DNA of 56,796 nt from an uncultured Candidatus Saccharibacteria bacterium (GCA_964391595.1 CAYMMM010000003.1:1-56796); one strand, 5' to 3'. Positions 6,263-46,608 are shown, counted from the first letter of the stretch. Program-made: numbers and translations. The notes: generated from the letters alone by a model not told the origin.

Positions 6263-7786
6263 TTAATTGGTTGTATTACCGCCACCGGTAGACGGTGTGG
6301 GTGTAGCTGTTAATGTTGGGGTAGTGCTTGGACTAATGCTGCCCGTAGTCGTTGTAGGTGAAGGTGAACTTGTAGTAGTAGGGGTTGGGCTAGCATTCTG
6401 GATGGCAGCTCCGTATCCCACCATACTGCTATTTCTCGAGATACCCATAATATTTAAGATGTATTCACTGTAAGTAGATGTAGACGTATCGAACATCTTA
6501 CCATTCTTATAGATTTTCGTGCCATCATTACTTATGCTGCCATCTGTTTGAAATATACCCAAAGTGCCTCCAATATTTAGATACGCAGGTATCGTTTGTG
6601 TAGAGAGTGGGGTATACGTTTTGTCTGCGCTACTAAACTTCCAAAGCCTTGAAGAATTCGAGTCCAGCCCAGATGCAAGAATATAGTACGAGTCCTTTGT
6701 GTCACTTGTGAGTATTTCGAACCATCCGTTACCACCTGCGAATGTAGAAACTTTGAATGGTCGTGAGATAGGCGACTGATCAGCTTGCGCTGTTAGTCTA
6801 AAGCTAACCGGCACTATCCCTGATGCTGTGACTTTTCCTGCGCCATCCTTCTCGCACACACGGGCACGAAGTAAGACTTCGTATCCGGCTTTCATCGTGT
6901 AATTTTGTGTTGCACTTACCCAGCCCGGAGCATTGCATCCATTACTGTAGTCAACGTTCATACGCTTCATAATAATCGATGAGTCCAGCTTGATACGTAT
7001 TGTATTTGTATATTTTGGATCGAGTATGTTGAGATTTGGATTGTTGTATTCAAAATCATCAATTAGTACATAGATATAATGATTAAGCGGATCTGCGAAC
7101 ATCGGTGCCTCAGCAATGTCGTGGTAACCGTTATTCCATTGGAACGGGATCGGAGTGCTGCTTTTCAATGAGCCAGTCTTGAGATCGAATATATTAAAGC
7201 TGACTACATTATTTGTTGTGACCTGCAAGTATACTTCGCTACGCTCAGTATCGACTAGCGGCTTTCCGTATGTTTGAGCGTTAAAGTTGAGTGTACTGAG
7301 AAGCTTGTGATTTTGTGTGTCTATAATCGGTATCTTATACCCATATGAAGGTGCTGTTTTTGATGTTGATTGGTCTGTGGGGATGCATACACCCGTTAAG
7401 ACAAAGAGTGGGCTTGACGAGCTGGGCTGCACCAAACCACCATATGAAAGACCATTGCCGGTCGCTTGCTTGCAGCCGGTTTGTGCGTCAAAGGCCGGTA
7501 GTGAGATATTGATACTAGGATCTGACTTATTTGTCGTCGCGTCATACCCGAAGAGACTATATTGCGAGTTATTGTTTGTATCATAGCCATTGAACTTCAG
7601 GGCGTAGACCAATCGAACGTTTGTACTTGCCTTTGAGAAGAAGATATATATGAAACCTAACGTAGCCACAAGTAGTATCGAGAGTGCAAGGACTAGCTTG
7701 GGGTTAAACTTTACTTTTTGTTGTAGTTTAGATGCTGTCGACACGTTACTTCTTGGTTTTTTTGAGGTTGATGGCTTAGTGGGCAT
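6263..7786 (-). CDS. Surface protein paralogue 1 (N-terminal anchor, beta-rich core, Thr/Pro/Ser stalk ending PSTGGGNTTN)
   Basis: The basic N-tail and TM segment (KLVLALSILLVATLGFIYIFF) are almost identical to the neighbouring gene. The C-terminus is low-complexity T/P/S. Confidence 0.75.
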   Translation of the reverse strand: MPTKPSTSKKPRSNVSTASKLQQKVKFNPKLVLALSILLVATLGFIYIFFSKASTNVRLVYALKFNGYDTNNNSQYSLFGYDATTNKSDPSINISLPAFDAQTGCKQATGNGLSYGGLVQPSSSSPLFVLTGVCIPTDQSTSKTAPSYGYKIPIIDTQNHKLLSTLNFNAQTYGKPLVDTERSEVYLQVTTNNVVSFNIFDLKTGSLKSSTPIPFQWNNGYHDIAEAPMFADPLNHYIYVLIDDFEYNNPNLNILDPKYTNTIRIKLDSSIIMKRMNVDYSNGCNAPGWVSATQNYTMKAGYEVLLRARVCEKDGAGKVTASGIVPVSFRLTAQADQSPISRPFKVSTFAGGNGWFEILTSDTKDSYYILASGLDSNSSRLWKFSSADKTYTPLSTQTIPAYLNIGGTLGIFQTDGSISNDGTKIYKNGKMFDTSTSTYSEYILNIMGISRNSSMVGYGAAIQNASPTPTTTSSPSPTTTTGSISPSTTPTLTATPTPSTGGGNTTN

Positions 7787-7860: not shown

Positions 7861-9252
7861 TTAGTTCGTGGTGTTACCGCCACCAGTAGATGGCACAGGA
7901 GCTGTGGTGCTAGTCGAAGCTGTGGGTGTTGTACTTGTAGACGGCGAACTCGATACGGTTGCTGTTGCTGTTGGACTAGGTGTAGTCGGAATAACACTTC
8001 CCAAGACAGGCGTTCCTTGTCTTGGTATATACGAGTTTACTGCGCCTGTACTGAAATTATAGGTACTGAGAGTGTTGTAAGTGGTAATGATGGCTACGGA
8101 TGGGTCTTGTGATGCGAACATCTCGCCACTTTGTATTGTATCGATATTTGCGCCTGGCGCAGTCTCAAATTGCTTGGTAGAGACATTGTATTTGAGTAGT
8201 AGTGGATAAGCCTTGTTGACGTTGGGGTCATAGCCTTTCATGCTCATGATATGAATGTAACCTGGCTGGATACTCGCTACGTCGTCGAATTGCAGGTTGG
8301 TCGTTGGCAGGTCCTGCCCAACCGCGGCAAAAATACTTGTGGGCTGAATAGTGATTTTGATGAGTTGTAGCTTGGTTACATTTCCGTTAGTGTCATCGAC
8401 TCGTCCGACTGCATAAATGTCTTGTGAGCCAGCAACGGACACGGCGTTGTGTGTGTGTGAGCGGTTTTTGAATGCAAATCCAGATGCGTTGGCTTTGAGA
8501 CTGCGCTTATTTGTATAAGTTGCAGTGTCATAGATCACTACATTTTTGTAGGCAGTTGGATCAGCTCCTGAACCGCGTTCGTCATTGCCATATAGAATTA
8601 CCAACCATTGACCATCGCCACTTACGACGATTCCCTCAGCAAATACGCCCGCCACGTCGTTTACATTGAGCGTTTTGACAACTGCATTTGTCAGCCCATC
8701 AACTACGGTAACTGTACCCCCATTATAGTCATGTACATAGTATTGCTTCTTGATTTCATTTGATACAACGTCGAGCATCCCGCTTTTTGTGGTTAGCGCG
8801 AGCGACTTGCCGGTATATGTATGGGTAGTAGTATCAATACTTGGCACAAGTAAGCTTTCAGACTGCAAGCCACCACACCCTGACGGTATTACAAATGCCC
8901 TGTTGGCGCTCCTAAGTTCAAGTACGTGATCATACCAGTAAGGTCGATTTGTCGTGCACCCATTTTGGGATGGGTAAGCGGGTAGGTCGATGCTTTTGAC
9001 CATCGACTTTGTCGTCGGATCCCATACCTCCACGCTGTTTTTGTTATTAGCCGTAGTGTAGCCGGCATAATAAACATATTCCTTAAGCGCACTCGCCTTC
9101 GAGAAGAAAATATAAATGAAGCCTAGTGTGGCAATGAGTAGTATTGAGAGTGCAAGGACTAGCTTGGGATTAAACTTTACTTTTTGTTGAAGCCTGGAAG
9201 CTGAAGATACGTTTGTTTTTGGTGTTTTGAGTGTCGATGTCTTTGCAGGCAT
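7861..9252 (-). CDS. Surface protein paralogue 2 (same leader and same PSTGGGNTTN tail, diverged beta-rich core)
   Basis: The first ~55 aa and last ~10 aa nearly match 6263..7786. Weak core similarity also exists (DPTTKS..IDLPAY..Q.GC). Confidence 0.75.
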   Translation of the reverse strand: MPAKTSTLKTPKTNVSSASRLQQKVKFNPKLVLALSILLIATLGFIYIFFSKASALKEYVYYAGYTTANNKNSVEVWDPTTKSMVKSIDLPAYPSQNGCTTNRPYWYDHVLELRSANRAFVIPSGCGGLQSESLLVPSIDTTTHTYTGKSLALTTKSGMLDVVSNEIKKQYYVHDYNGGTVTVVDGLTNAVVKTLNVNDVAGVFAEGIVVSGDGQWLVILYGNDERGSGADPTAYKNVVIYDTATYTNKRSLKANASGFAFKNRSHTHNAVSVAGSQDIYAVGRVDDTNGNVTKLQLIKITIQPTSIFAAVGQDLPTTNLQFDDVASIQPGYIHIMSMKGYDPNVNKAYPLLLKYNVSTKQFETAPGANIDTIQSGEMFASQDPSVAIITTYNTLSTYNFSTGAVNSYIPRQGTPVLGSVIPTTPSPTATATVSSSPSTSTTPTASTSTTAPVPSTGGGNTTN

Positions 9253-9623: not shown

Positions 9624-10277
9624 ATGTTTGGATTGCCGATGCGCGTACCAACACGAAGTGGTATTGAGGTAACGATGAAGCCGGTTTCGATCGAAGAAGC
9701 GGCGATTTTTGCCGAAGGCTTCTCGCGCTGGCCGATCATGCGTACCCTTTCGATGCGCGCCGCGCTCAGCGTCGAGGCAGAGCAAGAGTGGATTCGCGAC
9801 AACAACAGTAATGCCGAGAAGTGTGGCTGGGGTATCTATGTCGATGGCATTTTGATCGGAAATACTGGTCTGGAGGGGATTCGGGATCGCCGTGCGTCCT
9901 CGGGCTGCTGCATCTTCCGAGAGGAAGTCTGGGGTAAGGGCATCATCACTGCGGTGCATCATGCGCGCATGTGGTATGCGACTCAGGTGCTCGGTCTGGA
10001 AGCTGTCGATTCGTTTGTTTTCTACAGCAACGAGGCCTCGATGAAAGCTCTTTTGCGCGTCGGCTACACGGCCTACGGCGTTGAGTTTGACAAGCTTATT
10101 GTCGACGGCAGGCGTACTCATGCGCACCGTCTACTGTGGGTGAATCCAAATGCCCGCCAGTGGAATGCGTTCTGGGATGGACCAATCCCGGAGCAGTATG
10201 CCAAGCGTTTCTCCGAGGGTCGTCAGCGCGCGCGGATCGCACAGCGTTGGGCGGCTAAGAACGTCACGTTCTTGTGA
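9624..10277 (+). CDS. GNAT family N-acetyltransferase (RimJ/RimL-like)
   Basis: GNAT core pattern (GIYVDGILIGNTGL, REEVWGKGIITAV, NEASMKALLRVGY). An AGGAG SD lies upstream. Confidence 0.8.
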   Translation: MFGLPMRVPTRSGIEVTMKPVSIEEAAIFAEGFSRWPIMRTLSMRAALSVEAEQEWIRDNNSNAEKCGWGIYVDGILIGNTGLEGIRDRRASSGCCIFREEVWGKGIITAVHHARMWYATQVLGLEAVDSFVFYSNEASMKALLRVGYTAYGVEFDKLIVDGRRTHAHRLLWVNPNARQWNAFWDGPIPEQYAKRFSEGRQRARIAQRWAAKNVTFL

Positions 10278-10284
10278 CGGTTAT

Positions 10285-10316
10285 CCCTTCCCTTGAGTTT
10301 CGACTTGAGGGAAGGG
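10285..10316. terminator. Bidirectional hairpin between convergent genes
   Basis: CCCTTCCC...GGGAAGGG stem with an extended inner stem, followed by TATTTTTG. Confidence 0.6.
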
Positions 10317-10341: not shown

Positions 10342-11001
10342 CTACTTGGCTACGATTGGGGCGATAATGGTCTTGTCTTGCCAGTATTCGCAGTCAGCTG
10401 GAGGATCAACCTCGACAGTTTCGTAGGTAATGTCGTGAAATCCTGCCGCCTTTAAACGCAAGAGATGTTTCTGGCTGAACCCGGTAGCCTCATCTGAGTA
10501 ATAGGTTAGTACTCCACCCTTTTTGAGTAGACGAAATGCTTCCTCGAAAAACCAAAAATGATTGCCGTGTATCTCTTCTTCACTTAGCGGGTACGTATCA
10601 AAGAGAATGCCATCAAAACTGCCATCTTTAAGTAGTGGGGTAATGTCCTCCCAGAAGCCGGAAAGTATGTGCATCTTTCTGTTTGCAATCTGCTCTCGAT
10701 ACATATCCATACCGTTCTTAATGACATCAGGGTGACACTCAATAATTATATGTTCTTTGAGGTTTTTTGCTTCCTGGATATAGCCTGCAGATATACCCAT
10801 GCCAAAGCCAAGTTCCAATACTCTGCCGCCACGCATCGTAGCGATGTGGGCCAGCTTACGCATATACCCGTCCTCCCAGTCTTCCATTACGGGATGTCCA
10901 GAAATCTTAAGGGTATGTTCATCAAAAACAGCTGGGGTCCTATTCCAGTCTGCACGGTCTTCAGGAAATCCTATGTCTTTTCGGCTCTCGATTGTATTCA
11001 T
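10342..11001 (-). CDS. Guanidinoacetate N-methyltransferase (GAMT/RMT2-family) homologue
   Basis: Long collinear matches to human GAMT as I remember it: G.PVME.WE..YM, GGRVLE.GFGM, IIEC, WED..P.L.DG.FDGIL.DTYPLSEE, FRLLK.GGVLTY, PPADC.Y. Confidence 0.85.
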   Translation of the reverse strand: MNTIESRKDIGFPEDRADWNRTPAVFDEHTLKISGHPVMEDWEDGYMRKLAHIATMRGGRVLELGFGMGISAGYIQEAKNLKEHIIIECHPDVIKNGMDMYREQIANRKMHILSGFWEDITPLLKDGSFDGILFDTYPLSEEEIHGNHFWFFEEAFRLLKKGGVLTYYSDEATGFSQKHLLRLKAAGFHDITYETVEVDPPADCEYWQDKTIIAPIVAK

Positions 11002-11108
11002 AGCTATATTATAACACTCAATCTATATTTAGTCAATCATATATTGTTGCTTTTCACACTATACTATATTTCTTCCTTTTATACCTATATCATGGTTGTG
11101 AGGATATT

Positions 11109-12188
11109 ATGAAAAAGACGCCGTTTTTCACATTTGAGTCAGATAAGATAGCACAAAACTTTCGAAATTTTACCTCTGCATTACCTGAAGTACAGATTCG
11201 ATATGCGCTGAAATCAAGCCCTCTGAGCGATATTGCAAGCACCTTAGATGATCTTGGATGTGGCTTTGAGGTAGCTTCTAAGTCTGAGCTCGCGCAACTT
11301 TTAAGTCTAGATGTTGATGTAGCAAAGATTATTTTTAGCAATCCAGTAAAGAAAATCGAAGATATAAAATATGCACACAAGAAGGGTATTAAAATATTCG
11401 CCTGCGACTCTTTCGAAGAAGTACATAAACTTGCAGACAACGCTCCAGGGTGCTCAGTTCTAATACGCATAAAGGTATACGAAAGAGGAAGTGTTTTTTC
11501 ACTTAAGGATAAATTTGGGGTGGAGGAGAGGTCGGTACCAGCATTAGTGAAGGCGATACTGGGTGCTGGGCTCGTCTTTGAAGGTATCAGCTTTCATGTC
11601 GGCTCCCAGTCTTTGAAGTTGAATACATGGAAATATGCTTTAGAGAAGGTGCTACGGATCCAAAGTACACTGGCATCGAAGTCCATATTTATACAAACCT
11701 TGAATATTGGAGGTGGCTTCCCTTGGTCTTATAGGGGGCAGAAAGCCCCAACTGTTGCGGATATAGCTGATGTAATCAACCCCTACCTACGTAAAATTAA
11801 GCCAAAAAATGTGTATGCCGAACCTGGTAGATACTTGGTAGCCAGTGCAGCTACGTTAACGGCATCAATAATTCATCGCACAGTCCGCGATGGGAAAACA
11901 TGGTTGTATTTGGATGCAGGCACTTATAATGCACTCTTTGAGGCTATGACCTTTCAAGGGGCTACCAGTTACCACGTTACAGCATTAGGTGTCCATGATA
12001 AGAGGACATCATTATATACTTTGGCGGGACCGACCTGTGACAGTATCGATACGATCACAGAGAATGCACGACTACCTCAGGATTTGCAGGTGGGGGATAG
12101 ATTGGTTTTTAGCGATGTAGGTGCTTATTCTTATGGGCTGTCGAGTGGCTTTAATGGCTTCGCTACACCGAAAATATACTTTGAGTAG
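11109..12188 (+). CDS. PLP-dependent ornithine/arginine decarboxylase-type enzyme (alanine-racemase fold, group IV)
   Basis: PLP-lysine motif YALKSSP, plus FHVGSQ, NIGGGFP, EPGRYLVA and the ODC-type GPTCDSID. A GAGGA SD lies 5 nt upstream. It is short, at 359 aa. Confidence 0.85.
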   Translation: MKKTPFFTFESDKIAQNFRNFTSALPEVQIRYALKSSPLSDIASTLDDLGCGFEVASKSELAQLLSLDVDVAKIIFSNPVKKIEDIKYAHKKGIKIFACDSFEEVHKLADNAPGCSVLIRIKVYERGSVFSLKDKFGVEERSVPALVKAILGAGLVFEGISFHVGSQSLKLNTWKYALEKVLRIQSTLASKSIFIQTLNIGGGFPWSYRGQKAPTVADIADVINPYLRKIKPKNVYAEPGRYLVASAATLTASIIHRTVRDGKTWLYLDAGTYNALFEAMTFQGATSYHVTALGVHDKRTSLYTLAGPTCDSIDTITENARLPQDLQVGDRLVFSDVGAYSYGLSSGFNGFATPKIYFE

Positions 12189-12262
12189 TAAATTAGTTGA
12201 AAAAAATATAATATTATGCTATAATATGTGCATCGTGATAGCACCTACTGTCAGGAGGCAAA

Positions 12263-12637
12263 ATGGTTCACGACATCTATAACGGCCTCCTTGAAAAGGC
12301 ACATCACTACTCCGTTAGTCCTTTCGTGTTCATTTTTCTCTATTTGCTGACTTGGCCCATGGTCTGGCACTCGTGGTTTATCTTGCTGAGTGCTCATAAG
12401 TCTGGCGATAAGAAGAAGTTCACGCTCGGCATTTGGTATAACAGGGTTGCTACCCTGACGCCATACCTCTATGTGTTGGCTTTTGGGCGAAATTTCCCGG
12501 TATGGTTTGTTACAAGTGGTTTCTTCTTGATGGTCGCACTAACGATCATCTTCAAGCTACGTCTAGGAAGCGGACTACTTGTCGCGATTGCCAAGAAGGC
12601 TCAGAAGTTACGGAAGAAACTCCCGATTAAAAACTAG
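12263..12637 (+). CDS. Small polytopic membrane protein, unknown function
   Basis: 3-4 hydrophobic helices and a basic C-tail. An AGGAGG SD lies upstream. Confidence 0.55.
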   Translation: MVHDIYNGLLEKAHHYSVSPFVFIFLYLLTWPMVWHSWFILLSAHKSGDKKKFTLGIWYNRVATLTPYLYVLAFGRNFPVWFVTSGFFLMVALTIIFKLRLGSGLLVAIAKKAQKLRKKLPIKN

Positions 12638-12680
12638 ATTGCGCCTCGGCGCACTGAACAAAACGAAACGGAAGGTTGCT

Positions 12681-13271
12681 ATGACCGAAGTCGTAATTCG
12701 ATTCGTCGAGGGTGCCGAAAGAGAGGTTGCCCTCAAGCTCGAAGAGAGGATTTTCCGCGAGGAAAACTACCCCTACGATTACCGGCGATTTGATGAGCAG
12801 AGCCGTGTGTTCGCGGCGTTCATCGATGGGGCGTGTGTCGGAGTGCTGCGAGTTATCGCTCAGTCGCCGCTGTTGCCGCCGGTTCTCGAGGACTGTGATG
12901 TCTGGGACATCGGAGAGTGGCAAGCGATGGGCGAGAAGTTCGCCGAGCTTGGCACACAAGCCGTGCTCGAGGAGTATCGACACTCGGGTGTCGGTCTCTC
13001 TTTGATCAGGGCTGCCTATGTCGACGCTCGCTTGCGTGGTCTTGTGGCGTTGGCAGTGATCACTGAGCCGGAAAATGTGGACTTCCTGAACAACACTGCA
13101 AACTTCGCCTGTCGGCAGATTGGTGGAGTCGGCTTCAAGGGTTGGGAGTGTGCTCCCTACATCCACGTCTTCAGTGAGGTGGAAGTCAAGCTCGCGGCGG
13201 CTGATCCAGGCAGCTATGCATGGTTCACCGAGGGGATTCCCGATGACCTGCTTGCGGTCCCGAGATCGTGA
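12681..13271 (+). CDS. GNAT-fold acyltransferase, unknown acceptor
   Basis: The ATG at 12681 follows GGAAGG. The pattern is acetyltransferase-like (AAFIDGACVGVLRV, EEYRHSGVGLSLIRAAY). The upstream ORF extension overlaps the previous gene and is rejected. Confidence 0.65.
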   Translation: MTEVVIRFVEGAEREVALKLEERIFREENYPYDYRRFDEQSRVFAAFIDGACVGVLRVIAQSPLLPPVLEDCDVWDIGEWQAMGEKFAELGTQAVLEEYRHSGVGLSLIRAAYVDARLRGLVALAVITEPENVDFLNNTANFACRQIGGVGFKGWECAPYIHVFSEVEVKLAAADPGSYAWFTEGIPDDLLAVPRS

Positions 13272-13294
13272 CCCTGTAGATGTGTCGCTTCATT

Positions 13295-13334
13295 TTGGGT
13301 GTGGGCAGAAATGCCCACACCCAATTTCATTTTG
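13295..13334 (+). terminator. Intrinsic terminator
   Basis: TTGGGTGTGGGCA-GAAA-TGCCCACACCCAA followed by TTTCATTTTG. Confidence 0.75.
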
Positions 13335-13360
13335 TGCAGGTGCATTGTGTATGATAGTTA

Positions 13361-15775
13361 TTGAGACTTATGCTTAGAATTCAGTTCTATTATTATCTGC
13401 CGACGATCATCCTTATCGTGCTGCTGGCACTGGTAGTGATTTTTAATAATCCAAGAAAATTAACCAATCGAGTGTATCTGTCTTTTTCATCTGGCGTCTT
13501 GGTTTGGCTCGTCTCACAGCTGATAGCTGACACTACACCCAGTGAGACCCTTGCGCTTTATTGTATTCGCCTTGCGATAGCGAGTTCTGTCTTTATAGGG
13601 CTAGCCTTCGTATTATTGATAGATGCCTTTGTGACAGGCGAGGAGCCATCTATACGTAGGTGGTGGATTTTGGCGATAGGTCTCGGTAGCCTGGCTCCAT
13701 TTGCCTTCTTGCCTTCAACTGTGACTGCTGTGAGGCGGTATCCTTGGGGGGTAGAGGCGGTTTATGGATCATTATACTTATTGTTCCTGGCCTTTTCGCT
13801 TGCGGTTTTTTTCTACACTTTATATTTGGCTTTTTGGAAAAAGGTCGAGAAGACAAGTAAAGCCAAGACTCAAATTCGATATGTCTACGTTGGTATAGCA
13901 GCGACACTGATTACGAATGTAATTGGAAATTTTGTACTTCCATTCTTCGGGTTCTCTCAAGAGATAGGGGTTGCAATTAGTGTACTGTCAGTACTTTTCA
14001 TAATTGGGTCAACATCATACGCTATTGTACGTCATAGGTTATTTAATATCAGGGCCCTCGTTGCTCGTTCTCTGGCATATGCATTTTCAGTCCTATCATT
14101 TGCCTTCGTGTATGGATTCCTTGCCTATGGTGTTGCTCAGAATCTCCTGCTCAAGACTATACTTACAACCGAACGTTCCCAGCAGATCTTCAATATTATT
14201 CTGGCGGTTATGCTGGCCTTCACCTTCCCGACCATCCGTCGCTTCTTTGAGAAGATCACCGACCGCATCTTCTACCGCGATCGCTACGATCCACAGCACC
14301 TGATGTCGAGTATCGGGCGCACTCTGGCGACTGAAATCGCACTTGAGCCACTAACCACTAAGGTGATTCGTGTGTTAGAGGACGAGATGCGTCTGGCTGA
14401 CGCGAATATCGTGGTACTCGGTAAGAAGGGTCAAGATGGCGAGAAGGACACGGAGACCGAGACGGATATTTACTATCAGACGCACGGCGCGAAGAAGCAT
14501 CAGGATTATCGGATTGAGGACCTACGCTCGATTCGCATCCCGGTCATTATTACTGACGAGCTGGCATCATCTGATGAGCGTCAGATACTCGAGCAGCATC
14601 ACATCCGTGCCGCCTTCGCACTCAAGACTCGGGAGTCGCAGGTCGGATATCTGCTCCTCGGGGATAAGCGAAGTGGCGATATCTATAGTGACCAAGATAT
14701 TCAGACGTTGCGCATTATTGCCGACGAGTTGGCGGTCGCGATTCAAAACGCTCGCGCCTATACTGAGATCCAGCGTTTCAACGTAACCTTGCGTGAGAAG
14801 ATTGACCAGGCAACCCATGATCTCAAACATGCGAATAGTGAGCTCAAGGCGCTCGACAAGGCAAAGGACGAGTTCATCTCGATGGCTTCACATCAGTTGC
14901 GCACGCCACTCACTGCAGTCCGTGGTTACACATCGATGGTTATGGATGGGGATTTTGGTGACGTCTCTGCTGAGCAAAAAGATACGCTCAAGCAAGCTTT
15001 TGATGCTGCGACTCGCATGACGCGCTTGGTAGATGACCTACTGAATGTCTCGCGCATTCAGTCTGGCAAATTCCGTATCGAGCGGGCACAGGTCGATCTC
15101 AATAAGGTTCTGCCCGAAGAAATCTCGCTGCTCGATACGACCGCTAAGACTAAAAAAGTATCGATTACCTTCAATCCTCCGAAGACACCAGTGCCTTCGA
15201 TCCTGATCGACGAAGGCAAGACGAGGCAGTGTCTAATGAACTTGATGGACAATGCTATTTACTATTCATCCACCGCTACTGGAGGTGGCAAGGTCCAAGT
15301 ATATCTTGAGAATGATGCAGAAAATGTGATCTTCCGTGTGGTTGACAATGGTATCGGGGTGCCGAAGGCGCAGCAAGCCAAGCTCTTCAATAAGTTTTAT
15401 CGGGCACCAAATGCCCAGAAGACACGCCCAGATGGTACTGGCCTCGGTCTCTTCTTGGTCGGCAAGGTGGTCAGTGGACAGGGTGGTCAGATAATTTTCG
15501 AGAGCGAGGAAGGCAAGGGGTCGACTTTCGGCTTCAAGCTGCCGATCAAGGCTGCTGGTGAGGGCGTCGATGCGAATGGAAAGGTGGTCACTGCTCCTGA
15601 TGAGACGACAGCCGCGCCTGTGTCTGCTCCCGCTACTTCAGATACCAAAGCAGCACCAGTCGTGAATAAGTCAGTAGTAAGTGCCCAGCCAGTACCAATA
15701 ACGCAAACGAAGCCTATCGCAAATACAAAAAGCACAGCCACATCGTCTCAAGAAGTTAAGAAGTCTGGCGCATAG
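13361..15775 (+). CDS. Membrane sensor histidine kinase (multi-TM N-domain, GAF-like, HisKA, HATPase_c, disordered tail)
   Basis: About 8 N-terminal helices. H-box SHQLRTPLT, N-box MDNAIYYS, G-boxes DNGIGV and GTGLGL. The C-terminal ~90 aa are rich in A/P/T/S/K. An alternative ATG is at 13370. Confidence 0.9.
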   Translation: MRLMLRIQFYYYLPTIILIVLLALVVIFNNPRKLTNRVYLSFSSGVLVWLVSQLIADTTPSETLALYCIRLAIASSVFIGLAFVLLIDAFVTGEEPSIRRWWILAIGLGSLAPFAFLPSTVTAVRRYPWGVEAVYGSLYLLFLAFSLAVFFYTLYLAFWKKVEKTSKAKTQIRYVYVGIAATLITNVIGNFVLPFFGFSQEIGVAISVLSVLFIIGSTSYAIVRHRLFNIRALVARSLAYAFSVLSFAFVYGFLAYGVAQNLLLKTILTTERSQQIFNIILAVMLAFTFPTIRRFFEKITDRIFYRDRYDPQHLMSSIGRTLATEIALEPLTTKVIRVLEDEMRLADANIVVLGKKGQDGEKDTETETDIYYQTHGAKKHQDYRIEDLRSIRIPVIITDELASSDERQILEQHHIRAAFALKTRESQVGYLLLGDKRSGDIYSDQDIQTLRIIADELAVAIQNARAYTEIQRFNVTLREKIDQATHDLKHANSELKALDKAKDEFISMASHQLRTPLTAVRGYTSMVMDGDFGDVSAEQKDTLKQAFDAATRMTRLVDDLLNVSRIQSGKFRIERAQVDLNKVLPEEISLLDTTAKTKKVSITFNPPKTPVPSILIDEGKTRQCLMNLMDNAIYYSSTATGGGKVQVYLENDAENVIFRVVDNGIGVPKAQQAKLFNKFYRAPNAQKTRPDGTGLGLFLVGKVVSGQGGQIIFESEEGKGSTFGFKLPIKAAGEGVDANGKVVTAPDETTAAPVSAPATSDTKAAPVVNKSVVSAQPVPITQTKPIANTKSTATSSQEVKKSGA

Positions 15776-23112: not shown

Positions 23113-23817
23113 TCAGTTGATGAGACAGGCCTTGCGGTGCAGACGTTGCACCACGAAGATGAAGATGCCGCAGCACAACATCACCATGCCGAGGTTGAGC
23201 GCCCCGCTTGACGTGCCCCCGGTGTAGGCCAGGCGGGTCTGCGTGGTCTTCGGGGTATCGGGGCCGGGGCTCGACGGGGGAGCGGTACTTGCAGTCGGCA
23301 CCACCGTCGTGCTTGTCGTAGTGCTCGGAGCCGCAGCGGTCGTACTCGTCGTACTTGTTGTGGGCTTCGGAGCCGCGGTGGTCGTGCTCGTCGTGGTCGG
23401 AGCGACGGTCGTCGACGTCGTGGTACTGGTCGTCTTCGGAACCGTGGTGGTGGTCGAAGTGGTCGTCGAGGGCTTGGTGGGCGGCGGGTAGTGGCGGATG
23501 GTGGTGGTCGTCGTGTCCTCCGGACAGTCCACCTCGTCCTCATCCTCGGATTCGTCGTCGTTCCACTCCTCGTCGTCGTGGTGCCAGCTGTCCTCGCTGT
23601 CATCCCACTCTTCTTCCGAGTCGTCGGAGTTGTCGTGGTGCCAGCCGCTCTCGTCGCGAGGCTCGTGGCCGCCGTAACCACCGCGTGCGCTGGCGCCGGC
23701 TGCGGTGCCGGATGCCGACAAGGCGGCGAATCCGAGGAGGATCGTGGCGATCGCGAGGGTGATCAGGCTGATCGCGCGACGGAGCGTCTGCTTCGTCTTG
23801 GTAGGTGCGTGAGTCAT
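23113..23817 (-). CDS. Cell-wall-anchored protein with an LAxTG sorting signal (high-GC islet)
   Basis: Signal peptide, then an acidic W/H/D/E-rich block and a Thr/Pro stalk. The C-terminus is LAYTG, a hydrophobic segment and QRLHRK. Confidence 0.8.
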   Translation of the reverse strand: MTHAPTKTKQTLRRAISLITLAIATILLGFAALSASGTAAGASARGGYGGHEPRDESGWHHDNSDDSEEEWDDSEDSWHHDDEEWNDDESEDEDEVDCPEDTTTTTIRHYPPPTKPSTTTSTTTTVPKTTSTTTSTTVAPTTTSTTTAAPKPTTSTTSTTAAAPSTTTSTTVVPTASTAPPSSPGPDTPKTTQTRLAYTGGTSSGALNLGMVMLCCGIFIFVVQRLHRKACLIN

Positions 23818-38197: not shown

Positions 38198-41044
38198 ATG
38201 GTAAATAGAAAAAAAATACTTGCCGCAATCATCGGTGCATTTGCTGTAGCTATTATTCTTTTAGCCGTGGCGCGTCCCGCATCAGCAAATCCGGGGCGAA
38301 TCTCACTAAGTCCCGACCCGACCTCCGTAGTTGAGGGCCAAGATATGGTAGTTACCGTCCATCTTGACGAACCGATCATTACAGAAGAGGAAGAAGGATA
38401 TGTCACGATCAATCTGACCTCCAGTGATCCGGGCCTACTGAGCCTATCGGATTCTTCGATCACATTTCCGGCAAGTGAGTGGTCGGGGTCGAAGTCATTT
38501 ACAATATCAGCGCTTCCAGATAGTGTAATCACTGGTCACCAATCGCTTACGGTCTCATTTACGACTGATTCAAATTCGGAATATTACGATGGCTTCTCTG
38601 GAGATATAGATGTCACGTTTATCGATATCGAATTGAGTGGACAATTTGCTGGTGGCACGGGAACTGAAGCGGACCCATATTTGGTGGCGAATTGCGTGCA
38701 GCTCGCGTCAGTAGGAAGCGATCCTTTGCTCGCGGATTCATACTATAAGCTCGCAAACACAATCGATTGCTCAGATACGGTCAATTGGAATGGTGGTCAA
38801 GGCTGGGTGCCACTGGCTAGCTTCACGAATAGGTTTTCAGGCACGCTTGATGGCGATAATAATAGTATCACTGGGCTTTGGTCCTTGCGTGAGCCGGCAC
38901 CGGGTCTAGGCCTTTTCTCCTATACAGAAGATGCTACTTTTAAGAACCTCAATATAAGTGGAACAATCGCTAATTCAACAGAAGATTTAGGGACATGCTC
39001 GGGTGCAATCGCTGGAGCTGTATTTGGCTCAATCACAATCGAAAATGTCAGAAGTACTACCAATATTAGCGGTCTTCAAGACACGATCGGTGGGTTGGTT
39101 GGATGTATTCTAAACGGAGACGGAGCTAGCATTATTACAGGCAGTTCGGTCGATGCTACCTTAAGCTTGGGCGCTATCGGCGGACTCGTCGGGGATGCTG
39201 ATATATCCGGTACATCAAGTCTTACGATCGAGCATTCTACATCGACCGGCACTTTTTCTGGTGGAGATGTAGGTGGTTTGCTTCGCAGGTTTGTATATCG
39301 GGACTGGGATTCGGTTTCGAGCGGCCCCGCCTTGAATATCCTTGACTGTGGGTCAAGCGCCAATATTTCCGTCACAAATGTTGCAGGTGGGCTTGTGGAA
39401 AATATAGTCCTAGATCATCGGTGGGCAACGATACAGGATGCATATTTTACGGGGTCGATTGAGGCTAGTGCGGGGAGTGGTGTAGCGGGTCTTGTGAATA
39501 GAGTAAGTACATTTGACAGCAACCCAGCCGAAACGATTATCCAAAGAAGTTACGCTAGTACGTTAATCACAAGCGCGGCTGGAAATGTAGGTGGGCTTGT
39601 TGGAGTGGTGAGTTCCGACCATGCGGTCTCGGTTGAAGAAAGCTACTTTGGTGGGATTATAGATGCGACAGGTGATTTTGTAGGGGGTCTCATCGCGAGC
39701 TCGGATGGTAGTTCAATGATTGATAACTCGTATGCAGATGCTGAATTATCTGGTGATCAGTACGTTGGTGGCCTCTTAGGAGCCGGGGTTGCGGACATAA
39801 GTAATTCATTTGCTTTCGGGACAATCACAAGCTCTGGAACAGCACTCGGAGGTATAGCTGGATCAATTAGTGGGGGTACTATTGAGGATTCATTCGCTGC
39901 TGTTTCTGTCCCCGCAAATCAGCCTACCACGATAGGCGGGCTGGCAGGTGCAATTAGCGATATGACAATTGAGAATGCCTATGTTGATGCGGGGAGAACA
40001 GAGCAAGCTTGCTACTTTACAAGTGGGCCAGGCGACTCAAGCAGTGTCGATTGTAATACAGTAAACGATGATGGCTCAGATCCAAATTATTACTTTGATA
40101 CTGCTGTTAGCGCCCCCCTAGATCAGTGGGATTTTGACGCGGTGTGGAGTAGTAATGCATATTTCTATCCTTGCTTACAATGGCAAGATTTCTGCCAGAC
40201 TTTTGAGCCGCAAATGCTGTGCGAGATGGCGACCGCGACCGCGACGACAGCGCATGCTGCATGTGACATTCAAGTTCGATCTGGGTATGAGTATGGTGAA
40301 ACGACCTGGGAGGCGCGTTATAAGAAATCAGGTGATCTAGACTACAAGGTATATGCTCTCTCTGATAATACACTTGCCGAAATGAGCCTGACTGGCCTAG
40401 AGCCCGTATCAGATTATTATCTTGAATTCCGATTTACTAATAATTGGGGCGTAGGTGAGTGGGGGCGTGTCGAGGTGCGCACACTAGAGGGTCAAGCAGA
40501 AGGAAGCGCGGCAACTGGGTCTGCACGATCTGTTGTGTTTATTCAGCAATCTTCCGGGCCTTACTCCAATCGTCAGATTAATCTCGCTGACTTTTTAGAG
40601 TTCCTTTCTAATGGCAAGCAGGTTACTGGCTTACGAGAGGGTGACGTACTAACCTTCCAGGTAGATAATGAGTGGCATACCATAACGATTCAACAAATCC
40701 TGGACGATACCGTTATAGTGCTCATTCAGTCAGAGCCGCAGACGGCAAATCTGATGCCCGGCAGATCTACGACATTCGATGTAAACGGCGACAATACAAA
40801 TGATATCGAACTGACACTTGACGAGATAGCCGATAAAACGGCTTCTATAACCTTCAAGCAATTACGCAAGCCTCTCGCTACTACAGCATCATCAAGCTCG
40901 ATCACTGAAGAAGAAGTGCAGAGTCGCACGGAGCGCTATGGTTGGGTAGTGTGGCTGGTGGTTGGTGTAGCGGCTGCATTGCTAAGTACTATATATCTGA
41001 AGAATAGACATTTGGTGCATACGAAACAAGAATCGAAGGAGTAA
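38198..41044 (+). CDS. GLUG-repeat beta-helix surface protein 1 (C-terminal membrane anchor)
   Basis: Signal peptide, then a Calx-beta-like N-domain. Many GGL[VIL]G repeats spaced about 20-25 aa apart, an FN3-like domain, and a C-terminal TM with a basic tail. Confidence 0.85.
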   Translation: MVNRKKILAAIIGAFAVAIILLAVARPASANPGRISLSPDPTSVVEGQDMVVTVHLDEPIITEEEEGYVTINLTSSDPGLLSLSDSSITFPASEWSGSKSFTISALPDSVITGHQSLTVSFTTDSNSEYYDGFSGDIDVTFIDIELSGQFAGGTGTEADPYLVANCVQLASVGSDPLLADSYYKLANTIDCSDTVNWNGGQGWVPLASFTNRFSGTLDGDNNSITGLWSLREPAPGLGLFSYTEDATFKNLNISGTIANSTEDLGTCSGAIAGAVFGSITIENVRSTTNISGLQDTIGGLVGCILNGDGASIITGSSVDATLSLGAIGGLVGDADISGTSSLTIEHSTSTGTFSGGDVGGLLRRFVYRDWDSVSSGPALNILDCGSSANISVTNVAGGLVENIVLDHRWATIQDAYFTGSIEASAGSGVAGLVNRVSTFDSNPAETIIQRSYASTLITSAAGNVGGLVGVVSSDHAVSVEESYFGGIIDATGDFVGGLIASSDGSSMIDNSYADAELSGDQYVGGLLGAGVADISNSFAFGTITSSGTALGGIAGSISGGTIEDSFAAVSVPANQPTTIGGLAGAISDMTIENAYVDAGRTEQACYFTSGPGDSSSVDCNTVNDDGSDPNYYFDTAVSAPLDQWDFDAVWSSNAYFYPCLQWQDFCQTFEPQMLCEMATATATTAHAACDIQVRSGYEYGETTWEARYKKSGDLDYKVYALSDNTLAEMSLTGLEPVSDYYLEFRFTNNWGVGEWGRVEVRTLEGQAEGSAATGSARSVVFIQQSSGPYSNRQINLADFLEFLSNGKQVTGLREGDVLTFQVDNEWHTITIQQILDDTVIVLIQSEPQTANLMPGRSTTFDVNGDNTNDIELTLDEIADKTASITFKQLRKPLATTASSSSITEEEVQSRTERYGWVVWLVVGVAAALLSTIYLKNRHLVHTKQESKE

Positions 41045-41112
41045 TGCATTGCTGGTAAGTATAGGCAATACGGTTATGTTTGTGAGATACTGATAATAAG
41101 TATTTTCAAGTC

Positions 41113-44100
41113 ATGGAGGGCTGGGTGTCTGTAAGGATAGCCGGAACAACAAAAATGAAACGTATCGCAAAAAAAATCGAGAACTTGGGGCGCCTATCGC
41201 GGCTCTTAGTCGCAGTGCTAATATCATTGCCGTTATCGATATTCCCTTCTACTGCACAGCACACAAAGGCATTTAGTGGTACTGGTCTAGGTACAGCAGA
41301 GAGCCCATATCTTATTACTGATTGTGATGAGCTTCAGTCTATCGATATTGATGGCCAAAATTATGAAACAGAAGGCAAGACTTACAAGCTTGCTAGCGAC
41401 ATTGACTGTACAGCAACAAGTACGTGGAATAGCGGCCAAGGCTTTGACCCAATAAACGACTTTGGCGGCATCTTCGATGGTGATGGACACACAATTAATG
41501 GACTTACCATTAATCGACCATCGACTGATAATGTTGGTCTTTTTTCATACGCGGCCTACGAAGCACTTATTACAAGGGTGAGTTTGACGAACGTAAATAT
41601 AACTGGTGATAGCTATGTTGGCGGAATCGCCGGTGAAATAAATGGAACGCTTTTAGACGTTCATGTATCTGGCAGCGTAAGCGGTAGTAATGATGAATAT
41701 TATCAAGGAGTTGGCGGAATCGCCGGACGCAAAGGTAATACTGGATCTATTCTTGATCGAGTCAGCTTTGAAGGCACTGTCACTAATGCGGGTACTTCAA
41801 CCGGGGGTATCGTTGGGTATGCCGGCAATATTGGGGCACTTACAAATAGTTTTGTTAATGCATCAGTAAATGGTCAAACGCACACCGGAGGGCTCATTGG
41901 CTATATGGGATCGTGTTGTAATGTAGTGAGTAATACGTATGCTATTGGAGATGTGACCGGCACCACAAACGTCGGTGGATTAATTGGTCGCTATCAAGAA
42001 GTTTCCTCTGATGACAATAGGGTTGAAAACAGTTTTGCTGCAATTGCAGTGAGCGGTAGTTCGAACGTCGGTGCGGTTGTGGGTAGTATCAATAACATTG
42101 GCTCAACTCCGCTAACGAATCTGGCGTTTGATCAGGACATTGCGGGAGTGAGTGATTGTATTGGAGCCTCGGACTCGGGGGTCGTAAGCTGTACTGCTCG
42201 TAATACAGATGGGTTGAGCCCTGAATACCTACAAGACAGTGCAAACGAACCGCTTGCGAGCTGGGATTTTACCGACGTCTGGAATGAGGAGGTAGGAGAT
42301 TACCCAAGTTTAAGCCCTGTCACCGATCTGAGCGTTCCGGGTGCAGTTACTGGCATATCGGTTGACTACCCCAACTTGCCAAATGAAGCGGAGTTTAGTT
42401 TTACTGGGCCAGTAGATAGTGGATCATTCCCTGTGAGTTACTACGAAACAGAGGTTCGTTTAGCAGATTCGGACTGGAACAGTGTGGATGGGGGCAGTAC
42501 AAGCGACGCTTCTCCAATGAGTGTTAATAATTTATCACTTGGGACAGATTACGTTGTTCGCATCCGAGCAGTCAGCATATACGGGGCAGGAGACTGGACG
42601 GAGTATAACTTTAGTACTAGTCCTGCGGTTAATAGAGATATCAGCACATGTGAGCAGCTGCATGATATCGATGAGGATGCTTCGTTCTTAGATAACATAA
42701 CACTTACAGATGATATTGATTGCTCTGATATTGATAATTTCTCACCACTCAGTTTTGAAGACAGTTCGTATGCAGGTATTTTTGATGGCCAAGGTCACAC
42801 TATTTCGAACATAACAATGGAAGGCGATGACACCGGAGACTGGGGCCTGTTCAGCCATTTGGGTACTGGGGTTGTACGTGATCTTACAATTGAAGATGGT
42901 TCTATAGATGTTACTAATGATGCCTATGACTGTGGTGCTCTGGCTGGTGAGGCATATGGTACGACAATTACTGATGTCCATGTTCGTAATTATGATATAT
43001 CTTGCCGGTCTGTTGTCGGGGGGATAGTCGGTAATTACGACTCAGAGGACGGCGTAAATATTGAATTGACTAATCTCAGTGTTACTGGTGGATCAATGAC
43101 AGTAAGTGACAATAGAGCAGGTGGTCTATTTGGTGATGTGGATGTTAATGATGCATCAACCCTACTAGTTGAAAAAATATATTCTGATACAGCAGTAAAT
43201 TCTGAAGGGTCGGCAGGTGGTCTATTTGGTGAAGTTGACGTCGAAAATGACGAAGACGATGGCGATCCAGACGCTGTTATTACACTGAGAGATGCCTATT
43301 CTAAATCTATAGTAACGTCAACTGGCGATGATGTCGGTGGCTTGATTGGATACGCTGAAGTATATAACGATGGCTATGAGACTGTTTCCAAGATCGTCAT
43401 AGAAAACACCTATAGTTCGGGGTCAATCAGCGGATATTCAAATGTTGGTGGTTTAATTGGGGAATTGTATGATCTGGAATACGAGGGCGAAGAAGTCGAG
43501 ATCACTCATTCTTTTGTAACGAGCAGTATTAGTGACGAGGATTCCTCAAATGCTCATGCGGTGATCGGTTCTGAAATTGATATTGACGAGGGCCAATTGA
43601 CACTAGATGGTGTGTACTTTGATCAAACTGCCACCGGTAAAGACCAGGCACTCTTTGAAGATGATTACGCTGGATCATCTGCCATTAATACCGATGGCTC
43701 TGAGGGTGATTACTTCAAGAATAATGTCGAGAACCCTCCGCTAGACACATGGGATTTTGACGATATATGGCTAGTAAATGTAGATGACTATCCGACATTC
43801 ATTGGGCAACCATCTGAAGATATCAATATAGACATGAGTTCGGCAGAAGACGGATCACTGATCAATTTTACTGCGCAAGGATGTGATTCTCTTGGAGAAT
43901 GGCAGACTAGTAAAGAGTCCCAACTGGCCAAGCAAGATATCGGCTTTGATTACCCTGAGGGGCTGGTGAAGTTCGAATTGCTTAGCTGTGAAAGTGGCGG
44001 AGATGCTACTATTCAATTTACTGTTGTAACTAATCTAAAAGCAGGCGAAATTAGCGTTCGTAAATACAGCGAAACTCTTACTACCTTTACGACACTGACT

Positions 44101-44286
44101 GATGAGAATAGCAATGTGTCAATTGAAGAAGTGACAATTGATGATCAAGCTGCACTGCGTGTGACATATGTACTTACCGATGGCGGCTTACTCGATCAAG
44201 ACGGCTTAGTGAACGGCGAGATCGTTGACCCAGTAGGTGTGGCACAAGTAGCCCTGACTGCTCCAAATACAGGATCTGGCCATTAA
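41113..44286 (+). CDS. GLUG-repeat beta-helix surface protein 2 (two beta-helix modules, FN3-like domain, LTAPNTGSGH C-terminus)
   Basis: Signal peptide (an alternative ATG at 41155 gives MKRIAKK). Two FDG.GHTI..L entry motifs are each followed by VGG[LI][IVF]G repeats. Confidence 0.85.
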   Translation: MEGWVSVRIAGTTKMKRIAKKIENLGRLSRLLVAVLISLPLSIFPSTAQHTKAFSGTGLGTAESPYLITDCDELQSIDIDGQNYETEGKTYKLASDIDCTATSTWNSGQGFDPINDFGGIFDGDGHTINGLTINRPSTDNVGLFSYAAYEALITRVSLTNVNITGDSYVGGIAGEINGTLLDVHVSGSVSGSNDEYYQGVGGIAGRKGNTGSILDRVSFEGTVTNAGTSTGGIVGYAGNIGALTNSFVNASVNGQTHTGGLIGYMGSCCNVVSNTYAIGDVTGTTNVGGLIGRYQEVSSDDNRVENSFAAIAVSGSSNVGAVVGSINNIGSTPLTNLAFDQDIAGVSDCIGASDSGVVSCTARNTDGLSPEYLQDSANEPLASWDFTDVWNEEVGDYPSLSPVTDLSVPGAVTGISVDYPNLPNEAEFSFTGPVDSGSFPVSYYETEVRLADSDWNSVDGGSTSDASPMSVNNLSLGTDYVVRIRAVSIYGAGDWTEYNFSTSPAVNRDISTCEQLHDIDEDASFLDNITLTDDIDCSDIDNFSPLSFEDSSYAGIFDGQGHTISNITMEGDDTGDWGLFSHLGTGVVRDLTIEDGSIDVTNDAYDCGALAGEAYGTTITDVHVRNYDISCRSVVGGIVGNYDSEDGVNIELTNLSVTGGSMTVSDNRAGGLFGDVDVNDASTLLVEKIYSDTAVNSEGSAGGLFGEVDVENDEDDGDPDAVITLRDAYSKSIVTSTGDDVGGLIGYAEVYNDGYETVSKIVIENTYSSGSISGYSNVGGLIGELYDLEYEGEEVEITHSFVTSSISDEDSSNAHAVIGSEIDIDEGQLTLDGVYFDQTATGKDQALFEDDYAGSSAINTDGSEGDYFKNNVENPPLDTWDFDDIWLVNVDDYPTFIGQPSEDINIDMSSAEDGSLINFTAQGCDSLGEWQTSKESQLAKQDIGFDYPEGLVKFELLSCESGGDATIQFTVVTNLKAGEISVRKYSETLTTFTTLTDENSNVSIEEVTIDDQAALRVTYVLTDGGLLDQDGLVNGEIVDPVGVAQVALTAPNTGSGH

Positions 44287-46575: not shown

Positions 46576-46608
46576 CCAAGCTCGCAAGACTATAATAAAG
46601 TTAAGACT

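Follow-up and report, generated by a model that had tools for sequence, protein, structure and literature searches.

An uncultured Candidatus Saccharibacteria bacterium carries, at positions 10,342 to 13,271 of a contig of 56,796 nucleotides (GCA_964391595.1, CAYMMM010000003.1:1-56796; the whole stretch is referred to as the window), a module of four genes encoding a methyltransferase related to guanidinoacetate N-methyltransferase (GAMT), a basic amino-acid decarboxylase, a small hydrophobic protein, and a GNAT acyltransferase. On sequence comparison, this module is best read as the putative core of a conserved small-molecule pathway and not as a creatine gene. The three enzymes were recognized by family and fold and retain intact catalytic residues, the methyltransferase is linked or fused to decarboxylases in other genomes, and acyltransferases, exporters, and kinases recur beside it. 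A substrate (arginine or agmatine), an order of steps, an acyl group, a route of export, and a role for the kinase are proposed below.

Sequence, profile, and fold all place the full-length product of the methyltransferase gene in the GAMT family. In a phmmer search against the PDB, residues 18-219 were matched to human GAMT (3orh, E=6.6e-46) and rat GAMT (1xcj, E=4.7e-45), and the first match outside GAMT was an unrelated methyltransferase at 2e-05. Of the 199 columns aligned with the human enzyme, 99 are identical (50%), which corresponds to 45% when the full 219 residues are counted, and the 40-45% estimated by eye in the original prediction was a fair guess. The family “GuanidinoAc_N-MeTrfase” (Pfam PF27704) is assigned to an identical protein in precomputed annotation. 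The AlphaFold2 model (pLDDT 90.8) matched 3orh and 1xcj in Foldseek with TM scores of 0.86-0.89 and root-mean-square deviations of 1.9-2.2 A, the N-terminal lid included, while the next fold class, the spermidine synthases, followed after a clear gap at a TM score of ~0.65. Every block quoted in the original prediction is present (GGRVLELGFGM, IIEC, FDGILFDTYPLSEE, FRLLKKGGVLTY, and PPADCEY), and its whole-length alignment with vertebrate GAMT is borne out by the phmmer range, the Pfam family, and the fold. In both phmmer and Foldseek, the protein groups with GAMT and not with generic class I methyltransferases.

The active site was compared with 83 complete prokaryotic homologues. LELGFGMG of S-adenosylmethionine (SAM) motif I and IIIEC align with human LEVGFGMA and WIIEC and are invariant in this set, and the ribose-binding Glu of IIEC is kept. 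Glu43 corresponds to rat E45, which we take to pair with the guanidinium group, and is conserved in 99% of the homologues, while Asp135 is conserved in 100%. The latter corresponds to rat D134 and human D135, the catalytic base that deprotonates guanidinoacetate (PMC12842229). Neither the window protein nor any of the 83 homologues has the 13-residue loop CNLTSWGELMKSK of the mammalian enzymes. In its place stands an invariant TYYSDE, and directly behind the deletion Glu171 is invariant in the prokaryotic subfamily where human GAMT has Ile185. Two invariant His residues are found where human GAMT has Gln. E171, H148, H179, and W207 are invariant residues specific to the subfamily, which also has a conserved N-terminal motif with no alignment to mammalian GAMT. 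Because the loop is lost, the Glu/Asp dyad kept, and an invariant Glu gained, we infer that the pocket would still fit a guanidinium group and no longer a carboxylate.

Neighborhoods of GAMT homologues were analyzed in 80 loci retrieved of 160 relatives, in which open reading frames (ORFs) were called mechanically and searched with the window proteins, and neighbors were clustered. A decarboxylase of the alanine-racemase fold, the type found in the window, adjoins the GAMT gene in 14 of the 80 loci, at no more than 127 bp in 13 of these 14. It is present next to all genome homologues that are at least 57% identical to the window methyltransferase and have an uncut flank, and next to none below 57%; the GAMTs linked to it form one clade. 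The same position is taken in 21 of the 80 loci by an AdoMet_dc-family (SpeD-type) pyruvoyl decarboxylase of ~130 aa (Pfam 2.7e-23), which is either adjacent or fused, and at least three of the 80 loci encode the SpeD-type decarboxylase and GAMT in one ORF. Fusions were also recovered from 1.84 billion cluster representatives, namely P0123 (GAMT::AdoMet_dc) and P0124, a protein of 600 aa in which a decarboxylase of the alanine-racemase fold is joined to GAMT and whose domains are 36% (E=2e-69) and 56% identical to the window decarboxylase and methyltransferase, respectively. Two of the 80 loci have an operon in which SDR, LysE-like, and EamA genes accompany an amidinotransferase of the StrB1/AGAT type (E=5e-95 and 1e-62), and EamA and LysE-like exporters recur at other GAMT-homologue loci. 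The pairing of GAMT with a decarboxylase is not due to chance: many other genomes keep the gene pair pointed out in the original prediction in synteny, and in P0124 the two form a single protein. Since the two are adjacent in many lineages, since the same reaction class is supplied by non-homologous replacement, and since fusions occur, GAMT and the decarboxylase are read as catalyzing consecutive steps of a pathway.

The window decarboxylase had been described as divergently transcribed and of the ornithine decarboxylase (ODC) type with GPTCDSID, and it does contain both Pfam domains, Orn_Arg_deC_N (4.7e-52) and Orn_DAP_Arg_deC (2.4e-18), and is read away from the methyltransferase gene across a 107-bp spacer of 26% GC. 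Its catalytic motifs are intact, comprising YALKS with the Lys that binds pyridoxal 5'-phosphate (PLP), FHVGSQ, IGGGFP, AEPGRY, and GPTCDSID with the CD dyad. In the alignment to the Vibrio enzyme, the specificity helix LDAGTYNALFE is matched to LDDGIYGSFSG, with Ala at the position of ODC D332 (T. brucei) and a Glu further along. This specificity Asp is absent from the window decarboxylase and its GAMT-linked homologues, and D361 of the CD motif is kept in the window enzyme. DAGxYNxLxE is conserved in GAMT-linked decarboxylases with a readable helix, with DAGVYQGLME in the P0124 fusion, and is invariant only among GAMT-linked enzymes. The helix presumably resembles the DAG..R helix of diaminopimelate decarboxylase with the Arg replaced.

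The SpeD-type partners of other loci keep the pyruvoyl Ser, the His, and the Cys, but 19 of the 21 lack a Pro after HT(Y/W), and they read ESHISIHTY..K with no Gln/Thr/Phe/Tyr signature. In genuine S-adenosylmethionine decarboxylase (AdoMetDC) a Pro is reported as invariant, while it is not conserved in the derived arginine decarboxylases (SpeDA), and the AdoMetDC-derived ornithine decarboxylases (SpeDC) are marked by the Gln/Thr/Phe/Tyr signature (Li et al. 2023, PMC10407285). In the supplementary alignment of the same paper, AdoMetDC domains show WPE and the ornithine type shows Q..ETSL.SGHF (PMC10407285). We take the Pro of WPE to be the invariant one. Measured by these residues, the GAMT-linked SpeD-type partners fit the SpeDA type most closely. 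Because of these SpeDA-like partners, the amidinotransferase partners, which make guanidino compounds, and the invariant guanidinium-binding dyad, a conversion of arginine to agmatine is favored for the decarboxylation.

With 28.9 bits at a cut-off of 27, the window GNAT lies slightly above the Pfam threshold for FeeM (PF21926), and it also matches Acetyltransf_1. The best structural match in Foldseek of its AlphaFold2 model (pLDDT 93.3) was FeeM 2g0b, with TM scores of 0.71/0.76 at ~17% identity, while ordinary GNATs reached 0.5-0.6 and BjaI, an N-acyl-homoserine lactone (AHL) synthase, 0.63. With FeeM as the best structural match and an AHL synthase also among the matches, transfer of a long acyl group to an amine is suggested, and the protein probably serves as an N-acyl (fatty-acyl) transferase with an amine acceptor. 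Nine homologues were found in a database of 5.8 billion proteins, all from Saccharibacteria or Patescibacteria. SpeD-type operons contain another GNAT-like protein of 240 aa, and a further architecture contains a GARS-like ATP-grasp ligase; amide formation would therefore appear to recur across architectures by different enzymes. The 124-aa protein encoded between decarboxylase and GNAT has about three hydrophobic segments and a basic C-terminal tail, was without a match in Pfam or NCBIfam, and accompanies the decarboxylase/GAMT pair as a conserved neighbor in seven related loci. Export or membrane anchoring are possible roles.

In the proposed pathway, the PLP decarboxylase would strip the alpha-carboxylate from a basic amino acid, most likely turning arginine into agmatine, and the GAMT-like enzyme would methylate a guanidino nitrogen of agmatine (or of arginine prior to decarboxylation) with SAM by means of the Glu/Asp dyad. 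In this Saccharibacteria lineage, the FeeM-like GNAT would transfer an acyl group, probably that of a fatty acid, to the nitrogen of the free primary amine, and the 124-aa membrane protein would aid release or insertion of the product, with EamA and LysE transporters in its place elsewhere. The adjacent seven-transmembrane (7TM) kinase and its regulator would control the pathway or sense the product. That the core product is a decarboxylated, guanidino-N-methylated arginine derivative appears to us an evenly balanced proposition, while the acylation step is offered tentatively and may well not apply. The route from arginine over agmatine to N-methylagmatine and export, as originally hypothesized, gained from the grouping with GAMT, the synteny and fusions, the SpeDA-like and amidinotransferase partners, and the FeeM-like GNAT; for substrate, step order, and product it is a candidate scheme.

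A sensor histidine kinase and a response regulator lie directly downstream of the module, a conserved link that was absent from the original prediction. A histidine kinase was found at a distance of up to 6 kb in 38 of the 80 loci, and of up to 2.5 kb in 36, often in the same operon. Full-length alignments that include the 7TM region connect the window kinase to kinases of SpeD-type operons, with identities of 22-27% and E-values of 1e-40 to 1e-60, and kinases of the same full-length architecture adjoin GAMT homologues in distant phyla. In Parcubacteria-type loci, the genes for response regulator, GAMT, SpeD, GNAT, and histidine kinase lie in this order on the same strand, separated by 0-100 bp. 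A secreted arginine-derived signal, of the agmatine type, N-methylated and here also N-acylated, might be detected by the co-localized 7TM kinase and regulator, although we consider this unlikely. If true, it would represent an unrecognized self-signaling system common to Saccharibacteria, Parcubacteria-type Patescibacteria, and scattered other prokaryotes. To our knowledge, the cell-cell and host communication of these organisms is essentially uncharted.

Several observations weigh against the arginine-derived pathway or parts of it. The best solved relatives of the decarboxylase are bacterial lysine/ornithine decarboxylases (5gjm at 1.5e-55, and 2plj), followed in the PDB by eukaryotic ODC and then by the arginine decarboxylase of the chlorella virus PBCV-1 (8e-39). 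The D332/D361 rule of ODC does not assign the substrate, as D361 is kept, D332 is replaced by Ala, and the helix is unlike that of any characterized class; ornithine, lysine, or another basic amino acid may be the substrate of the PLP enzyme. The CNLTSWGELMKSK loop is only presumed to carry rat L170/T171, whose backbone amides we take to bind the carboxylate of guanidinoacetate in 1XCJ, and since two lineages of the loop-less subfamily carry an amidinotransferase, guanidino acids that bear a carboxylate may still be accepted without the loop. About half of the GAMT homologues in the 80 loci are without a decarboxylase nearby. Orthology of the window GNAT with the 240-aa GNAT of SpeD-type operons was not supported (hhalign probability 12.6%, E=0.002); both are GNAT-like. 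In the window, a terminator-like hairpin lies between the enzymes and the kinase and suggests that the kinase is transcribed apart from them in this genome. The genome scan covered one genome per species and, by its two peptide patterns, samples this subfamily only, and the GAMT tree is a neighbor-joining tree only.

The kinship of the decarboxylase with lysine/ornithine enzymes and its retained D361 would be accounted for by polyamine N-methylation, in which ornithine or lysine would be decarboxylated to putrescine or cadaverine, the GAMT-like enzyme would methylate a primary amine to an N-methylputrescine-type product, and the GNAT would acylate it. Spermidine synthases, which bind polyamines, are the next structural neighbors of the methyltransferase after GAMT, and N-acyl amine synthases from environmental DNA make long-chain N-acyl-putrescine (palmitoylputrescine). 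However, the Glu and Asp that pair with guanidinium in GAMT are invariant, the SpeD-type partners are SpeDA-like and lack the SpeDC signature, the amidinotransferase partners indicate guanidino substrates, and Ala occupies the ODC D332 position, which together make polyamine N-methylation unlikely. The spermidine-synthase match at a TM score of ~0.65 would also suit a transfer of aminopropyl or other alkyl groups, for which the GAMT-like protein would use decarboxylated SAM supplied in other lineages by the SpeD-type neighbor. While a weak NCBIfam match to polyamine aminopropyltransferase (E=0.007) and the AdoMet_dc-family neighbors or fusions in 21 genomes agree with such a transfer, the invariant Pro of genuine AdoMetDC is missing from 19 of 21 SpeD-type neighbors, the window partner is a PLP amino-acid decarboxylase, and motif I is the GAMT-type GFGMG, which is not of the aminopropyltransferase type. 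We consider this extremely improbable.

An orthodox GAMT would convert guanidinoacetate to creatine, as the K00542 annotation has it, and its decarboxylase neighbor would be unrelated. The 50% identity to human GAMT with retained catalytic residues, the database name of the relatives (“guanidinoacetate N-methyltransferase”), and the AGAT-like amidinotransferase in the operon of two lineages are in line with this, but no amidinotransferase, agmatinase, or spermidine synthase was found among the ORFs of the 57-kb window, the loop with the presumed carboxylate-binding residues is deleted throughout the prokaryotic alignment, and creatine synthesis leaves the adjacency and fusion with two unrelated decarboxylase families unexplained. 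The window protein lacks two features of a creatine enzyme, the presumed carboxylate loop and, within 57 kb, the amidinotransferase partner, and the creatine-type step that the original prediction kept as an alternative loses ground on both; creatine production is a decidedly improbable function. In Patescibacteria, creatine has no role that we are aware of, and a literature search turned up none. The GAMT fold is also common to fungal RMT2, which methylates the delta-N of protein arginine. An RMT2-like arginine methyltransferase acting on a two-component or ribosomal protein, with decarboxylase and GNAT in a separate polyamine process, would explain the frequent linkage to histidine kinases and response regulators and the fusion of GAMT domains to the protein-modifying SET and Leu/Phe-tRNA protein transferase domains. 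Nevertheless, it is very improbable, as a metabolite is suggested by the decarboxylase fusions and by operons that also encode amidinotransferases and exporters, and the window protein is nearer to GAMT (E-46, 50%) than to the 400-430-aa proteins with a C-terminal GAMT-like domain (~40%).

The proposed arginine-derived pathway combines likenesses to several characterized systems. With vertebrate GAMT (EC 2.1.1.2; 3ORH, 1XCJ), the methyltransferase shares PF27704, the fold, ~50% identity, the SAM motif, and the Glu and Asp, while it lacks CNLTSWGELMKSK, has E171/H148/H179/W207, and is partnered by a decarboxylase, not AGAT. The nearest functional precedent is BlsL of Streptomyces, a GAMT-like enzyme ~33% identical to GAMT that methylates not guanidinoacetate but the guanidine of an arginine-derived, amine-acylated blasticidin S intermediate, and whose activity depends on acylation of the nearby amine (PMC5572114). 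Its combination of methyltransfer and acylation parallels the pairing of methyltransferase and acyltransferase in the window, whereas BlsL performs a late step on a peptidyl nucleoside in an antibiotic cluster and the window enzyme, compared by description, belongs to a module of 3-4 genes with a decarboxylase. The decarboxylase has both domains and the motifs of the lysine/ornithine decarboxylases of Selenomonas and Vibrio (5GJM, 2PLJ), of ODC, and of the PBCV-1 arginine decarboxylase (2NVA), and it is short like the viral enzyme. It differs from the lysine/ornithine and ODC enzymes in its helix (DAGTYNALFE, compared to DDGIYGSF in Vibrio and what we take to be NDGVYGSF in ODC), with Ala at the D332 position and a conserved Glu downstream.

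The AdoMet_dc-family partners and fusions of other lineages resemble SpeDA in keeping Ser/His/Cys and lacking both the AdoMetDC Pro and the SpeDC signature, while the window contains no such gene and the PLP enzyme fills the slot. Methyltransferase partners are not mentioned in the paper on SpeD neofunctionalization (PMC10407285). The GNAT resembles FeeM and other N-acyl amino acid synthases as well as LuxI-type AHL synthases in passing the Pfam FeeM threshold, in having FeeM as its best fold match, and in matching BjaI, but its identity to FeeM is only ~17% and its family is tiny. CqsA/CqsS and AgrBD/AgrCA are pairs of autoinducer synthase and membrane sensor kinase. They likewise have biosynthetic genes beside a polytopic histidine kinase and a response regulator, but no homology was seen, the window enzymes and kinase are split by a terminator, and sensing of the product is hypothetical here. 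Prokaryotic and viral GAMT homologues are treated as creatine genes in current annotation and in at least one paper. Full-text literature searches returned nothing on GAMT in Patescibacteria or on a module of GAMT and a decarboxylase, and an N-methylated agmatine derivative as a bacterial metabolite was not found in the literature searched. Known enzyme families seem to be assembled into an undescribed pathway.

The base composition of the module deviates moderately from the window, which has a GC content of 49.6%. The methyltransferase and decarboxylase genes have 45.5 and 42.8% GC with z-scores of -1.2 and -1.9, respectively, and the gene-wise z-scores of GC and third-position GC (GC3) across the cluster range from -0.7 to -1.9. 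Lower GC than in the methyltransferase gene was found at 6263..7786 (43.3%) and 41113..44286 (44.6%), while no gene of the window lies below the decarboxylase. The flanking GNAT genes are GC-rich (56.6 and 57.7%), which sharpens the contrast. The AT-richness reported for 10.3-12.2 kb is therefore real, but modest and not marked. Relatives whose methyltransferase is 82-88% identical carry the same cluster at the same site beside the genes for kinase, response regulator, and pgk, while the other flank differs. With a modest shift in composition and a stable chromosomal position, there is no evidence of recent transfer, and the horizontal acquisition considered in the original prediction was not supported by these z-scores, the other AT-rich genes, and the stable site.

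All four ORFs were confirmed at the coordinates originally given (Table 1), and the order of a small membrane protein and then a GNAT after the decarboxylase is as described. The GNAT itself is real, but gene calls on identical contigs place its likely start at the ATG at 12681 and not at the TTG at 12579. The hairpin ahead of the module separates the convergent 3' ends of the GAMT-like gene and of a second GNAT gene upstream (9624..10277, plus strand). This second GNAT, RimJ/RimL-like with an Acetyltransf_3 match and 56.6% GC, is convergent with the GAMT gene, occurs only in the closest relatives, with a 123-aa remnant in the related locus L005, and probably lies outside the module. Promoter and terminator calls in the window are consensus matches only.

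Table 1. Positions of the module genes, adjoining genes, and predicted signals in the window.
Feature	Coordinates	Strand	Basis
Hairpin, terminator-like module boundary	10285..10316	no strand	Terminator scan: 14-bp stem, 7 GC, T-rich tail
GAMT-family SAM-dependent methyltransferase, prokaryotic subfamily, 219 aa	10342..11001	-	Sequence, profile, fold
Divergent intergenic spacer, 107 bp, 26% GC	11002..11108	no strand	Composition and promoter scan
Promoter-like TTGACT-17-TATAAT with TG	11036..11008	-	Ends 7 nt before GAMT ATG; consensus match
Short alanine-racemase-fold PLP-dependent basic amino-acid decarboxylase, 359 aa	11109..12188	+	Pfam, catalytic motifs
Promoter-like TTGAAA-17-TATAAT with TG, upstream of membrane-protein gene	12197..12225	+	Consensus match only
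Small hydrophobic protein, 124 aa	12263..12637	+	ORF; no family match
FeeM-like GNAT, 196 aa from ATG at 12681	12681..13271	+	Pfam FeeM, Acetyltransf_1, AlphaFold2 model
Terminator-like hairpin 3' of GNAT gene	13295..13324	+	13 pairs, 8 GC
Sensor histidine kinase, N-terminal 7TM, GAF-like segment, HisKA, HATPase_c	13361..15775	+	Domain search
Single-domain response regulator, 140 aa	15803..16225	+	Response_reg on identical contig

In a search of the whole window with Rfam at the gathering score, tRNA was the sole match in the riboswitch scan. Control by a guanidine or SAM riboswitch was rejected, as a permissive scan of 9-14 kb yielded only a sub-threshold match to the Moco/tungsten riboswitch at 13214..13358 on the plus strand (25 bits at E=0.01, compared to a gathering score of 36). 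This match overlaps with the hairpin behind the GNAT gene, which probably produced it by chance. The gene for pgk comes after that of the response regulator, and the remaining window is core chromosome with genes for F-ATPase, enolase, pyruvate kinase, triosephosphate isomerase, aminoacyl-tRNA synthetase, and sortase, together with giant surface proteins. The nearest genome records are Candidatus Saccharibacteria metagenome-assembled genomes (MAGs). The locus sequence is present in DNA runs from activated sludge and wastewater metagenomes, and no RNA sequencing runs containing the locus were found.

Elsewhere in the window, a 234-aa ORF at 23113..23817 (minus strand) has 65.5% GC, 83% GC3 (z ~4), and no Pfam match, and is the real compositional outlier, deviating far more than the AT-rich module genes. 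Two tandem paralogues of 507 and 463 aa at 6263..7786 and 7861..9252 (both minus strand) have GC contents of 43-46% and no Pfam family. They share an N-terminus, MP.K.ST.K.P..NVS.AS.LQQKVKFNPKLVLALSILL, which is signal-anchor-like, and a Thr/Pro-rich C-terminal tail ending in TGGGNTTN. Since both are missing from the matching flank of L005, this flank is variable. At 38198..47238, three large surface-type proteins (948, 1057, and 762 aa; GLUG, fn3, M26 N-terminal region) are followed by a sortase gene, in what looks like a locus of sortase-substrate surface proteins.

The GAMT subfamily was found to be rare, roughly as the original prediction had stated for bacteria. Two narrow peptide patterns returned 160 relatives among 185,579 species genomes, and 109 clusters were found at E<=1e-30 among the 1.84 billion cluster representatives. 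The same two patterns gave no viral carriage of the subfamily in IMG/VR. Taxonomic labels of MAGs in the locus set may be wrong. Loci labeled as Bdellovibrionales or Paceibacteria (L075, L083, L084, L087-L089, L091, L092) encode a Cys-rich secreted protein, EamA, a GARS-like ATP-grasp ligase, GAMT, and a 7TM kinase; this kinase of 560 aa begins 0-20 bp after GAMT, and no decarboxylase is nearby. Saccharimonadales-type loci (L019-L025, L009, L011) have a decarboxylase with GPTGDSLD, in which G stands at the ODC C360 position, and two conserved proteins of no known family, one of 92 aa and a polytopic one of ~283 aa, which precede a short kinase. The 283-aa protein was considered as a split-off 7TM sensor of these short kinases and rejected at an hhalign probability of 0.4%.

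Other fusions join the GAMT domain to an N-terminal polytopic membrane domain (P0125), to SET (P0141), and to a Leu/Phe-tRNA protein transferase (P0167). GAMT-like domains also occur C-terminally in proteins of 1000-3500 aa, and P0165 is listed among the fusion proteins. This suggests that the GAMT-like family is functionally more diverse than its name. P0036, labeled as the fungus Cladobotryum mycophilum and located on a contig of 7.6 Mb, is 64% identical to the window methyltransferase, compared to 50% for mammalian GAMT. It could be due to bacterium-to-fungus transfer or to contamination.

The association of the prokaryotic subfamily with decarboxylases by adjacency, replacement, and fusion would imply a product other than creatine, most simply an N-methylated agmatine derivative, and would correct a systematic annotation error by which K00542 is equated with creatine. 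If this is true, Patescibacteria and DPANN archaea would have a new branch of arginine and polyamine metabolism. The metabolism of these groups is minimal, and each pathway they keep is therefore likely to matter for their host-dependent lifestyle. The operon link to 7TM kinases and exporters would offer a testable candidate for chemical signaling in these uncultured groups.

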